Of a stretch of DNA of 49,982 nucleotides, positions 19,603 to 22,558 are shown piece by piece (positions within the stretch are counted from its first letter, which is position 1; each line of letters begins with the position of its first letter). The stretch lies in IMG/VR virus record IMGVR_UViG_2588253749_000002; one strand, written 5' to 3'. Under the pieces are notes generated by a model, which was not told the DNA's origin, did not search any database, and worked only from the letters and a program-made list of their open reading frames with translations. Source of the DNA: a virus (lineage: Duplodnaviria; Heunggongvirae; Uroviricota; Caudoviricetes). Made by a program: the position numbers and the translations under genes.

Positions 19603-19986
19603 ATGCGTGATATTCAGATGGTTCTTGAGCGTTGGGGAGCGTGGGCGGCTAATAATCATGAAGATGTGACCTGGTCGTCCATTGCCGCCGGTTTTAAGGG
19701 ATTAATTCCTTCAAAAGTAAAATCTCGCCCGCAATGTTGTGACGATGACGCGATGATCATTTGCGGGTGCATGGCCCGTCTGAAAAAGAACAACAGCGAT
19801 TTGCACGATTTATTAGTAGATTATTATGTAGTCGGTATGACATTCATGTCACTGGCAGGTAAGCATTGCTGCTCTGATGGTTATATCGGGAAAAGGTTAC
19901 AAAAGGCTGAGGGCATAATTGAAGGGATGTTAATGGCATTAGATATCCGGTTAGAGATGGATATCGTTGTTAATAACTCTAATTAA
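19603..19986 (+). CDS. quuD: Late-gene antiterminator Q (QuuD-like)
   Basis: 127 aa from [22 protein letters not shown]... with a Cys cluster. Confidence 0.85.
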
Positions 19987-20019
19987 TACGCCAATTATTT
20001 ACTAAAAGTTATTAAAAAT

Positions 20020-20037
20020 GGGGCGTTGAAACGCCCC
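20020..20037 (-). terminator. Hairpin with T-run downstream of nmpC
   Basis: GGGGCG-TTGAAA-CGCCCC followed on the minus strand by ATTTTT. Confidence 0.4.
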
Positions 20038-20174
20038 CAAAAATAAAGGGTAATATATAACAGAAGGTTTGTATAGTTAGAAGCAAGGTTGTGCTTCTAA
20101 AGGAAGTGGCTTGAGGGAGCCACTTATATGTTGGGGAGGCAAAGCCTCCCACAACATATCTTTTAGTAATCAAA

Positions 20175-21257
20175 TTAGAACTGGTAAACCATACCTACAG
20201 CAACGATATCATCGGTAGCAACGCCAGATGCTTTCGTGAAATCGCTCTTATCAATCAGGTTGATTTTGTAGTCAACAAAAGTGGACATATTTTTGTTGAA
20301 GTAATAGGTTGCACCTACATCAACATATTCAACCAGGTCCTGATCACCCCAAACACCCAAGTCTTTTCCTTTAGAATGCAGGTAAGCAACGGATGGACGC
20401 AGGCCGAAGTCGAACTGATATTGTGCAACAGCTTCGAAGTTTTGTGCTTTGTTGGCAATATGGTTATTACCAAAAACAGTCATGTTCTGGGTTTCAGAAT
20501 AGGTGGTGGCCAGATAGATGTTGTTCGCATCATATTTCAGACCAGCTGCCCATACTTCAGCATTTTGACCAGAAGCATTCAGACCGTTGTTACCGTAGAT
20601 AACCTGATTATTAGTGCGATCAGATTTAGCATAGGTTGCACCTACACCGAATCCTTCATACTCATAAGTAGTGGAGAAACCGAAACCATCACCATTAGCT
20701 TCAGTTACGTCAGTGCGGTCATTTTTACCCTGATACTGAGCAGCAAAGTTCAGACCATCAACCAGACCAAAGAAGTCGTTGTTACGATAAGTTGCAACAC
20801 CAGTGGTGCGACCAGTCATGAACACATCTGTTTGAGTCCAAGTGTCACCACCGAATTCTGGCAGGACGTCAGTCCACGCACCGATGTCGTATGCTACACC
20901 GTAGTTACGGCCGTAATCGATGGAGCCGTAGTCACCGAATTTCAGGCCAGCGAAGGCAAGACGGGTTTTATCTTTGGAGGAACCTTGAGATTCAGCGCGG
21001 TTGCCTTTGAATTCATATTCCCACTGACCGAAACCAGTCAGTTGATCGTTGATTTGGGTTTCACCTTTGAAGCCAAGACGGGCATAAGTAGTATCACCAT
21101 CATCTGCATCATTAGAGGAGAAGTAGTGCTTAGCATTAACTTTCCCGTACAGATCCAGCTTGTTACTGTCTTTATTATAAATTTCAGCTGCCTGAGCAGA
21201 CATCGCCATCAGTACTGATGCAGCTACAGCAGAAATTGCCACTGTTAATTTTTTCAT
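20175..21257 (-). CDS. nmpC: Outer-membrane porin, NmpC/OmpD type
   Basis: 360 aa from [23 protein letters not shown] (signal peptide), C-terminal ...VGMVYQF; opposite strand to flanking phage late genes. Confidence 0.85.
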
Positions 21258-21454
21258 CGTGAGCCCTTTTTTTGAACTATTATTAAAAAATGATGTCACT
21301 GCGCGATAAATATTCATCTAATCAATATGATTATTTCAAGATGTAAGTTTTAGTTTCTCATTTAATTTGTGAAGTAGATCTCTATTTTTATCTGAACTTT
21401 TTCTATCGAAACCTATTTATGGCTCTTATTTGAACAAAAATAAACCTATTAGCT

Positions 21455-21495
21455 AATTTATATTAATGGCTGTTATTTATGGGGGGGGCTATAAT
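21455..21495 (+). promoter_or_regulatory. Candidate promoter: G8 tract abutting a consensus TATAAT
   Basis: GGGGGGGG at 21481-21488 followed by CTATAAT; weak -35; coordinates approximate. Confidence 0.3.
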
Positions 21496-21845
21496 TCGAT
21501 GGTTTAATTTAAATTAACTAAAAATAACGCCGGAAATTATTTGTTGGTTATTTGTTGAGGTTTTCTTATGTATTTGTGGTGGTGTTTTGAACACTCGGTA
21601 GCATTCTCATAAATATCATTCAGTGGTTTACGTACGTAAAAAATTGGTTATGCTGTTAAGAGTGGTTACTTCGTCACACAGCTTAAACCCGCCGTCGAGC
21701 TGGTTTTTCCATTTTTTGAGTCTCGATATTAGCTGATAACTCAATACCTGAGTTATTCACTGACTCCGAGTCTGTTACGTTTCTGCTTTTTTGCGATACG
21801 TTGTATTCCCTCAATTTACACCCGCTTTGTCTGCGAGGTGGGGTT

Positions 21846-22061
21846 ATGAAATCCATGGATAAGTTAACAACGGGTGTCGCCTATGGCACCTCAGCAGGTA
21901 GTGCCGGTTACTGGTTTTTACAGCTGCTCGATAAAGTCACGCCCTCACAGTGGGCAGCAATAGGTGTGCTGGGTAGCCTGGTATTTGGCCTGCTGACGTA
22001 CCTGACAAACCTTTATTTCAAGATTAAAGAAGATAAGCGCAAGGCTGCGAGAGGTGAATAA
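21846..22061 (+). CDS. essD: Holin, S21 pinholin type, dual-start motif
   Basis: 71 aa from [24 protein letters not shown]...; Met1 and Met4 give a possible holin/antiholin pair. Confidence 0.85.
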
Positions 22062-22558
22062 TGCCTCCATCATTACGAAAAGCCGTTGCTGCTGCTATTG
22101 GTGGCGGAGCAATTGCTATAGCATCAGTGTTAATCACTGGCCCAAGTGGTAACGATGGTCTGGAAGGTGTCAGCTACATACCATACAAAGATATTGTTGG
22201 TGTATGGACCGTATGTCACGGGCATACAGGAAAAGACATCATGCTCGGTAAAACGTATACCAAAGCAGAATGCAAAGCACTCTTGAATAAAGACCTTGCC
22301 ACTGTCGCCAGACAAATTAACCCATACATCGAAGTCGATATACCGGAAACAACGCGCGGCGCTCTTTACTCATTCGTTTACAACGTAGGTGCTGGCAATT
22401 TCAGAACATCGACGCTTCTTCGCAAAATAAACCAGGGCGATATCAAAGGCGCATGTGATCAGTTACGTCGCTGGACATATGCTGGCGGTAAGCAATGGAA
22501 AGGTCTCATGACTCGTCGTGAGATTGAGCGTGAAATCTGTTTGTGGGGTCAGCAATGA
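22061..22558 (+). CDS. rrrD: SAR endolysin (T4-lysozyme-like)
   Basis: 165 aa; N-terminal Gly/Ala-rich signal-anchor segment ([20 protein letters not shown]) then lysozyme core. Confidence 0.9.

Follow-up and report, generated by a model that had tools for sequence, protein, structure and literature searches.

The stretch of DNA analysed here (the window; 49,982 nucleotides of IMG/VR record IMGVR_UViG_2588253749_000002) carries the Q-to-lysis region of a DLP12/PA-2-type lambdoid prophage. The Q antiterminator gene quuD lies on the plus strand at 19603-19986 (Pfam PF06530, E = 8.5e-54), and its product also gives a distant match to Q21 structures (E = 7.6e-8). QuuD has 127 amino acids versus 144 in Q933W; the two proteins are 79% identical up to the residues LEMD and diverge thereafter. 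The porin gene nmpC/lc is located on the minus strand at 20175-21257 (Pfam Porin_1, E = 3e-152) and is annotated in K-12, A34, and PA-2. The lysis cassette begins with the holin gene essD on the plus strand at 21846-22061, recognized by Pfam Phage_holin_2_1 (E = 2e-35) and by annotations, and continues with rrrD, rzpD, and bor/iss. Of 5426 complete E. coli genomes, 3167 contain the intergenic region between nmpC and essD, which also occurs in 36 phage records, PA-2 and 434B among them.

On the plus strand of this intergenic region, t21480 is followed by a run of eight G residues (G8, 21481-21488), c21489, and a TATAAT hexamer (21490-21495). The text at the site is ...GCTGTTATTTAT GGGGGGGG C TATAAT TCGATGG.... 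The initial annotation had described a G8 run immediately followed by CTATAAT, and the sequence as read bears this out, with CTATAAT at 21489-21495. Its approximate distances also hold: the nmpC start, placed about 225 nt away, is at 224 nt (minus-strand ATG at 21257), and the holin gene, placed about 350 nt away, is at 358 nt (essD ATG at 21846). The two elements differ in how far chance accounts for them. In the whole 50-kb window, G8 occurs once against 1.02 expected from shuffles, which is not unusual, and TATAAT occurs 14 times against 15.9 expected. Within the 588-nt intergenic region (34% GC), G8 or C8 appears in only 0.05% of dinucleotide shuffles, whereas 1.2 copies of TATAAT are expected and at least one is present in 71% of shuffles. 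The perfect hexamer is therefore no evidence of a promoter on its own, and it is the run, not the hexamer, that needs explaining. The mutational history of the run, described below, provides one explanation for its local presence.

The G8 run is the expanded form of a sequence-variable patch that is usually 7 nt long. In a conservation profile of 55 unique sequences, this patch is among the most variable and least conserved stretches of the intergenic region. It is flanked on the left by a conserved AT-rich block, ATTTATATTAATGGCTGTTATTTAT (21456-21480, plus strand), and on the right by the block CTATAATT (21489-21496, plus strand), which is at least 90% conserved and contains the consensus -10-like TATAAT. 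Another variable stretch follows just past the hexamer. Variants of the hexamer among the alleles are TGTAAT, TATGAT (PA-2), and CATAAT (in a remnant of the locus). Over 21456-21545 as a whole, conserved blocks alternate with variable patches at 21481-88, 21497-502, 21514-18, and 21529-33, about 15-16 bp apart, and the alleles of these patches are linked into two haplotype families. A GTTATTTRT motif is repeated at 21472, 21538, and 21548.

The G8 run and the TATAAT lie inside an insert. On the left side, the window is homologous to the Q genes of Sp5 and S. flexneri as far as ...GAGATGGAT, near 19962. On the right side, homology across genera resumes at the TTTACG at 21627. The 1.66-kb segment in between, at about 19963-21626, is therefore an insert (moron) placed between the truncated 3' end of Q and the late promoter pR'. 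It contains nmpC, its terminators, and 368 nt of upstream DNA. The insert replaced the last ~20 codons of Q and directly adjoins the -35 element of pR', so that the A-rich stretch that precedes the -35 in insert-free phages is lost. The proximal part of the nmpC upstream DNA includes a CRP site annotated for lc (21365-21385, mapped onto the window from the PA-2 record J02580) and is common to the upstream regions of Salmonella and Citrobacter ompD. Past the proximal 80-130 nt the resemblance ends: nothing homologous to the distal part (21390-21626) was found in front of ompD or other porin paralogues. The G8/TATAAT segment belongs to this distal part. It is about 100 bp from the CRP site and 135-170 bp upstream of pR'. 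The core promoter common to nmpC and ompD implies a start for nmpC, and the segment lies about 180 bp upstream of this start.

The distal region travels with nmpC. nmpC is present in every one of the 79 loci that have a QuuD-type Q, and the distal region is present in 78, the exception being a short locus (L134). Among phages, the distal region occurs in no records other than the 36 matched by the entire nmpC-essD intergenic query. Identity between the region and the PA-2 lc record J02580 is 94.5%, and the tract is, like the corresponding DNA of the PA-2 lc and DLP12 nmpC morons, part of the nmpC/lc insert. Judged from co-occurrence and from the insert boundaries, the G8/TATAAT region is a part of the porin moron.

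The TATAAT is not the promoter of the lysis cassette. The Q-dependent late promoter is found further downstream, on the plus strand at 21627-21654. It consists of a -35 element TTTACG (21627-32), a 16-nt spacer with the dyad TTTACGTACGTAAA, and a -10 element TATGCT (21649-54). We assign this sequence as pR' with high confidence from its conservation and homology. It is followed by a conserved block that covers the start site and the initially transcribed region, TGTTAAGAGTGGTTACTTCGTCACA (21655-21679), and then by a GC-rich hairpin with a T run (21686-21712), the homologue of which is annotated as tR' in 933W. From the spacing and the Sp5 homologue, the pR' start is predicted near A21661, which would place the hairpin and T run 26-52 nt past the start.

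This assignment was examined in a scan of Q loci, in which one genome per species was searched with an alignment of QuuD and Q21, yielding 80 Q loci with 29-99% identity. Only window positions 21626-21712 of the intergenic region are conserved downstream of Q homologues, in approximately 20 species of many genera. In nine loci (from Shigella/E. coli, Pantoea, Trabulsiella, Yersinia, and Xenorhabdus) the pR' block begins 5-47 nt after the Q stop codon, with no insert in between. In eleven other loci it lies 855-2893 nt from Q, behind other inserts. The aligned layout in 21 loci comprises an A-rich stretch, TT(T/A)ACG, the dyad (A/G)CGTACG(T/C), AAAA, about five variable bases, the TAnnnT that is invariant in 21 of 21, TG(T/A)TAAGAGTGGT...GTCAC, and the GC-rich hairpin with its T run. 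The stems of the hairpin vary between genera, but their pairing is kept. The block also matches 362 phage records. In one of them, the Stx phage 933W (Y10775), the homologous block is annotated as putative pR' and tR', and window positions 21626-21708 align with it. The annotation of Shigella phage Ss-VASD names it as the late promoter.

A link to mapped transcripts is provided by the Stx phage Sp5 of the Sakai strain. The promoter scan called TTTACG-16-TATCAT in Sp5, and a distance of 258 nt separates the start predicted from it and the end of the second terminator. In a study that combined dRNA-seq and Term-seq in Sakai, the distance from the PR' start to the tR' 3' end was 258 nt (PMC7547250; its coordinates refer to an older genome version and are offset by 142). 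The exact agreement of the predicted and the mapped distances supports the assignment of the homologous pR'. A similar layout is annotated for the pR' of phage 21, with a Q-binding element in the spacer and a terminator within 50 nt. The G8/TATAAT segment resembles these promoters in lying between Q and the lysis genes (933W/Sp5, phage 21). However, it is absent from all Q loci that lack nmpC and has no homology to any annotated or mapped pR', whereas linkage to Q is seen for 21627-21712. The distance from the TATAAT to the hairpin, about 210 nt, recalls the lambda 6S region. The TATAAT was considered as pR', in which case the hairpin at 21686-21712 would end a lambda-6S-like RNA of ~210 nt; this reading was rejected on the strength of the cross-genus Q loci and the homology with 933W and Sp5. 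The corrected map of the DLP12/PA-2-type lysis cassette thus has a 933W-type pR' at 21627-21654 that is split from Q by the nmpC insert, and the G8/TATAAT segment should not be mistaken for pR'. One further resemblance was considered: CGATGGnTTAATT resembles the lambda pause region. It falls in a haplotype-specific patch and was dismissed as a coincidence.

Several features of pR' can be noted in their own right. The spacer dyad TTTACGTACGTAAA (21627-21643) overlaps the -35 element, and its halves covary between clades, the versions being ACGTACGT, ACGATCGT, GCGTACGC, and GCGG(T/A)CCGC. The type of dyad tracks the Q clade. The dyad is a candidate for the element bound by Q in the Q933W/QuuD group, whereas the Q protein of phage 21 binds a direct repeat. 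The first hairpin and T run (21686-21712; 669-696 in locus L321) are conserved across genera at 26-52 nt past the pR' start. The mapped 3' end of the Sp5 pR' transcript is at the second terminator, 258 nt from the start, and not at this first hairpin (PMC7547250). The PA-2 record also lists a second 'CRP site' (window 21662-21682; 1730-1750 in locus L124), which falls on the initially transcribed block of pR', GTGGTTACTTCGTCACAC. Since this second site is conserved in phages without a porin gene, it probably serves the late promoter and not lc.

The variable patch was compared in 78 rows (77 fetched loci, sampled by Q identity, and the window itself). The patch is 7 nt long in 75 of the 78, and only about 4% depart from this length. 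More than 90% of the alleles have a 7-nt patch, with sequences such as AAGTGCT, GGGGGTT, and GGTGGTT; further alleles include GGGGGGT, G7, G8, and G9, and GGTGGGG and GAGGGGGT were found too. Two haplotype families can be distinguished, one with AAGTGCT-like patches (K-12, PA-2, 434B) and the other with G-rich patches (GGGGGTT, GGTGGTT, GGAGGTT, and others). PA-2 and K-12 have AAGTGCT in place of the G run, and PA-2 has TATGAT in place of TATAAT, while the G-run alleles form the separate family. Approximately half of the 78 loci sampled by Q identity have an AAGTGCT-type patch without any run. The functional phages have a 7-nt patch: all five phage genomes checked (Turner, ev099, PhiR29_1, 434B, and PA-2) carry GGGGGTT, GGTGGTT, or AAGTGCT. 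Across the 78 loci and the phages checked, the locus does not maintain the tract.

Among the G-rich alleles, the length of the run does vary. On several sequence backgrounds the alleles form length series, namely G7/G8/G9 followed by C, G6/G7/G8 followed by TC, and G5/G6 followed by TTC. The suspicion that tract length differs among isolates is thereby upheld, since, on several backgrounds, sequences that are nearly identical elsewhere carry patches of 6-9 nt. When IMG/VR was scanned in full for runs of at least six G, the yield was G6TC four times, G7TC twice, and G8TC, G6TTC, G7C, G8C, and G9C once each; metagenome contigs gave G6TC three times and G7TC once. In complete E. coli genomes, in which tract lengths were taken from span lengths and 12 fetched loci, we found G7C (A34), G8C (Z1323HEC0422), G9C (TW10573 and Z1323HEC0399), and G7TC (SW070917 and 2014C-3307). 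Strain 64 has G8 with T replacing C, and in strain 135 a G7 run directly abuts the TATAAT. The sole difference between Z1323HEC0422 and Z1323HEC0399 over 400 bp is G8 versus G9. G9C and G7TC were each found on three backgrounds and G8C was found on two, indicating that length changes arose repeatedly.

All of the length variants among the pooled fetched loci are in G-run alleles: one shorter by one base, eight distinct backgrounds longer by one, and four backgrounds longer by two. These counts are approximate because the loci were partly retrieved by patterns requiring a flanking motif and one contig may bear two locus identifiers. No length variant was found among approximately 120 K-12-type loci on 51 backgrounds in the same pool. 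The restriction of length changes to G-rich alleles fits replication slippage. Furthermore, the fraction of length variants grows with the length of the run; it is low at G5, about 3 of 7 at G6T, and includes most alleles at G7. This rise is a signature of slipped-strand mispairing, although a part of it may be homopolymer sequencing error. We found no description of the G-run polymorphism in the literature searched. The sequences themselves have long been known (the PA-2 lc record dates from the 1980s), and the polymorphism is a new instance of a familiar phenomenon.

As a promoter, the TATAAT has little to pair with. The only -35-like hexamer that a position-weight scan provides is ATGGCT (21466-21471, plus strand), which matches the -35 consensus in 3 of 6 positions and would pair with the perfect consensus -10. 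The spacer between them is 17 bp with the usual 7-nt patch, 18 bp in the window, and 19 bp with G9. In this crude scan the pair is among the top plus-strand candidates, although nearly all of its score comes from the TATAAT. The total score is 7.2 with a 7-nt patch, 6.4 with G8, 5.0 with G9, and 4.0 with G10, whereas the real pR' scores 6.1 and thus below the 6.4-7.2 of the TATAAT candidate. A consensus promoter scan called no promoter at the TATAAT. In the window haplotype the run places G at -14 and -15, and there is no TGn extended -10.

There is also no evident product. No conserved open reading frame lies between 21496 and the pR' hairpin and hence no switched gene is found downstream; nmpC is divergent, and the holin gene is behind the hairpin and T run. 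Two small open reading frames were considered and rejected. One of 44 amino acids spans the tract and is annotated in ev099 and PhiR29_1, and another of 14 codons occupies 21569-21613; the frames and stops of both differ between alleles. In K-12, the small open reading frame downstream of the TATAAT has a stop at codon 4. A search of 19900-22100 found no Rfam family, and the predicted folding of 21499-21725 is no better than that of shuffled sequences (z = 0.64).

From these observations, we consider it fairly probable that the G8 run is a by-product of replication slippage on an unconstrained patch, outside the promoter of the lysis genes. The patch, normally 7 nt long, lies between two conserved AT-rich blocks, of which the right one reads CTATAATT by happenstance. 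In a G-rich allele such as GGTGGTT or GGGGGTT, point substitutions would add further Gs to make first G6T and then G7. Once a run of approximately six or seven G is present, slipped-strand mispairing would add single Gs, and in one case remove a base, to produce the patches of 6-9 nt. If the TATAAT fires at all, each extra G would widen the spacer to ATGGCT, which is 17 bp at first and then 18 or 19 bp, and lower the output of a rightward promoter that is weak to begin with. Polymerase starting there would transcribe through the pR' region and reach the hairpin and T run about 200 nt downstream. It would be unmodified by Q, because Q loads at pR', and holin expression should therefore change little. 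Two observations point the other way. In the crude scan, the TATAAT candidate does as well as the real pR', so that it may have promoter activity. In addition, the length of 7 nt is kept in more than 90% of alleles while the sequence of the patch drifts and its flanks are conserved. This looks like a length-constrained spacer that separates two functional elements, and changes in length may therefore have a phenotype. The pattern fits a spacer-like element, but it equally fits the alternation of conserved and variable blocks through 21456-21545.

The initial annotation saw in the run a homopolymer within a promoter spacer and proposed length-dependent switching. Spelled out, this would be a phase-variable sigma-70 promoter in the porin insert, with the TATAAT as its -10 and the length of the G run setting the spacer, switched by slipped-strand mispairing. 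The part that stands is the spacer-like position upstream of a consensus -10, behind a conserved upstream block, together with a spacer that is conserved in length but free in sequence. It also stands that tract length differs among near-identical isolates with repeated origins, and the predicted score falls from 7.2 to 6.4 to 5.0 as the patch grows from 7 to 9 nt. However, the -35 matches only 3 of 6 positions and the scan called no promoter. The TATAAT is expected by chance, and some alleles have TGTAAT, in which the key A is lost. The long run is missing from most alleles, which have no homopolymer, and from all phages checked, the five of them having 7 nt. To our knowledge, runs of G7-G9 are also shorter than the tracts of the classic contingency promoters. 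We therefore regard a dedicated phase switch as unlikely. The output of such a switch would be non-coding RNA transcribed rightward, basal read-through that reaches the late region, or interference with pR'. No gene precedes the pR' hairpin, and the small open reading frames are unconserved. A different role would place the tract in a distal regulatory site of the divergent nmpC, bound by a nucleoid protein or an upstream activator, with the length of the tract tuning nmpC expression. The tract does lie in an nmpC-specific upstream region that travels with the gene, and both the alternating blocks of 21456-21545 and the repeated GTTATTTRT motif would suit such a site. However, it is ~100 bp beyond the annotated CRP site and ~180 bp upstream of the implied nmpC start, it has no homologue upstream of ompD or other paralogues, and the patch sequence is among the least conserved, all of which makes this role improbable.

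Another possibility, which touches the length call only, is that the eighth G is a sequencing or assembly error and that the true allele is G7. Homopolymers are error-prone, and the closest complete genome, A34, has G7. The window segment 21340-21640 has no exact match among complete RefSeq E. coli genomes, the best being 99.3%. The only exact match over the promoter-core segment (21440-21725) and nmpC is the IMG/VR contig IMGVR_UViG_638341085_000015 (locus L139, a contig shared with L028), which is probably the source genome or a very close relative. Since it is probably the same genome, it lends no independent support to G8. However, G8C occurs on a different background in Z1323HEC0422, G9C on three backgrounds, and G7TC and G8TC in isolates and a metagenome, so expanded tracts exist in nature. 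Some of the length variants could be homopolymer sequencing or assembly errors, but for the window we consider an erroneous eighth G unlikely. Finally, and least probable of all, the run may be a true contingency tract that tunes a rightward insert promoter through the pR'/Q-loading region or acts divergently on nmpC. In that event, subpopulations of lysogens would differ heritably in basal late-region or porin expression, and the repeated independent expansions to G8 and G9 would reflect selection in lysogens and not drift. We retain slippage on an unconstrained patch as the preferred reading.

Phase-variable promoters with a homopolymer in the spacer are known from the poly-G of Neisseria meningitidis porA and the poly-C of Bordetella fim. 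The locus described here resembles them in that a G run lies just upstream of a -10 hexamer, its length sets the distance between -35 and -10, and this length differs between isolates. It differs from them in that the promoter is putative, the -35 is poor, and the run is short (7-9 G). Moreover, most alleles have no run, no gene lies downstream, and the putative promoter points away from the porin gene. Were the tract to modulate transcription, E. coli would have here one of its rare promoter polymorphisms of the slipped-strand type. Under the preferred reading, it would offer a small case of the birth and instability of a homopolymer, from a G-rich patch through point substitutions to slippage. 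The prophage regulatory region that bears the tract is found in more than 40% of complete E. coli genomes (2415 of 5426).

Two further features of the nmpC upstream DNA were observed. The plus strand has a sigma-E-like promoter at 21274-21306 (GAACTA, 16 nt, TCACT). When the primers of a study of this region are mapped onto K-12, its '-121 to +650' amplicon sets the '+1' at K-12 position 576874, corresponding to approximately 21306 in the window (PMC7918800). That study cites the '+1', which belongs to the RpoE-regulated lysis cassette, from Rueggeberg 2015 (PMC7918800). The mapped '+1' falls within the porin insert; the nmpC ATG is about 50 nt away and the G run 175 nt downstream. The second feature is seen in E. 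coli G3X16-2 (positions 2501-2829 of locus L003, at ~1.96 Mb), where the initial 330 nt of the nmpC upstream region recur at approximately 80% identity but without nmpC. This copy adjoins emrE-ybcL-ybcM and an IS200/TnpB element. Its patch sequence is GATTGAC, and TCATAAT comes next. A DLP12-like prophage seems to have left the copy behind after a deletion, and similar remnants are present in many genomes (H31-H37).
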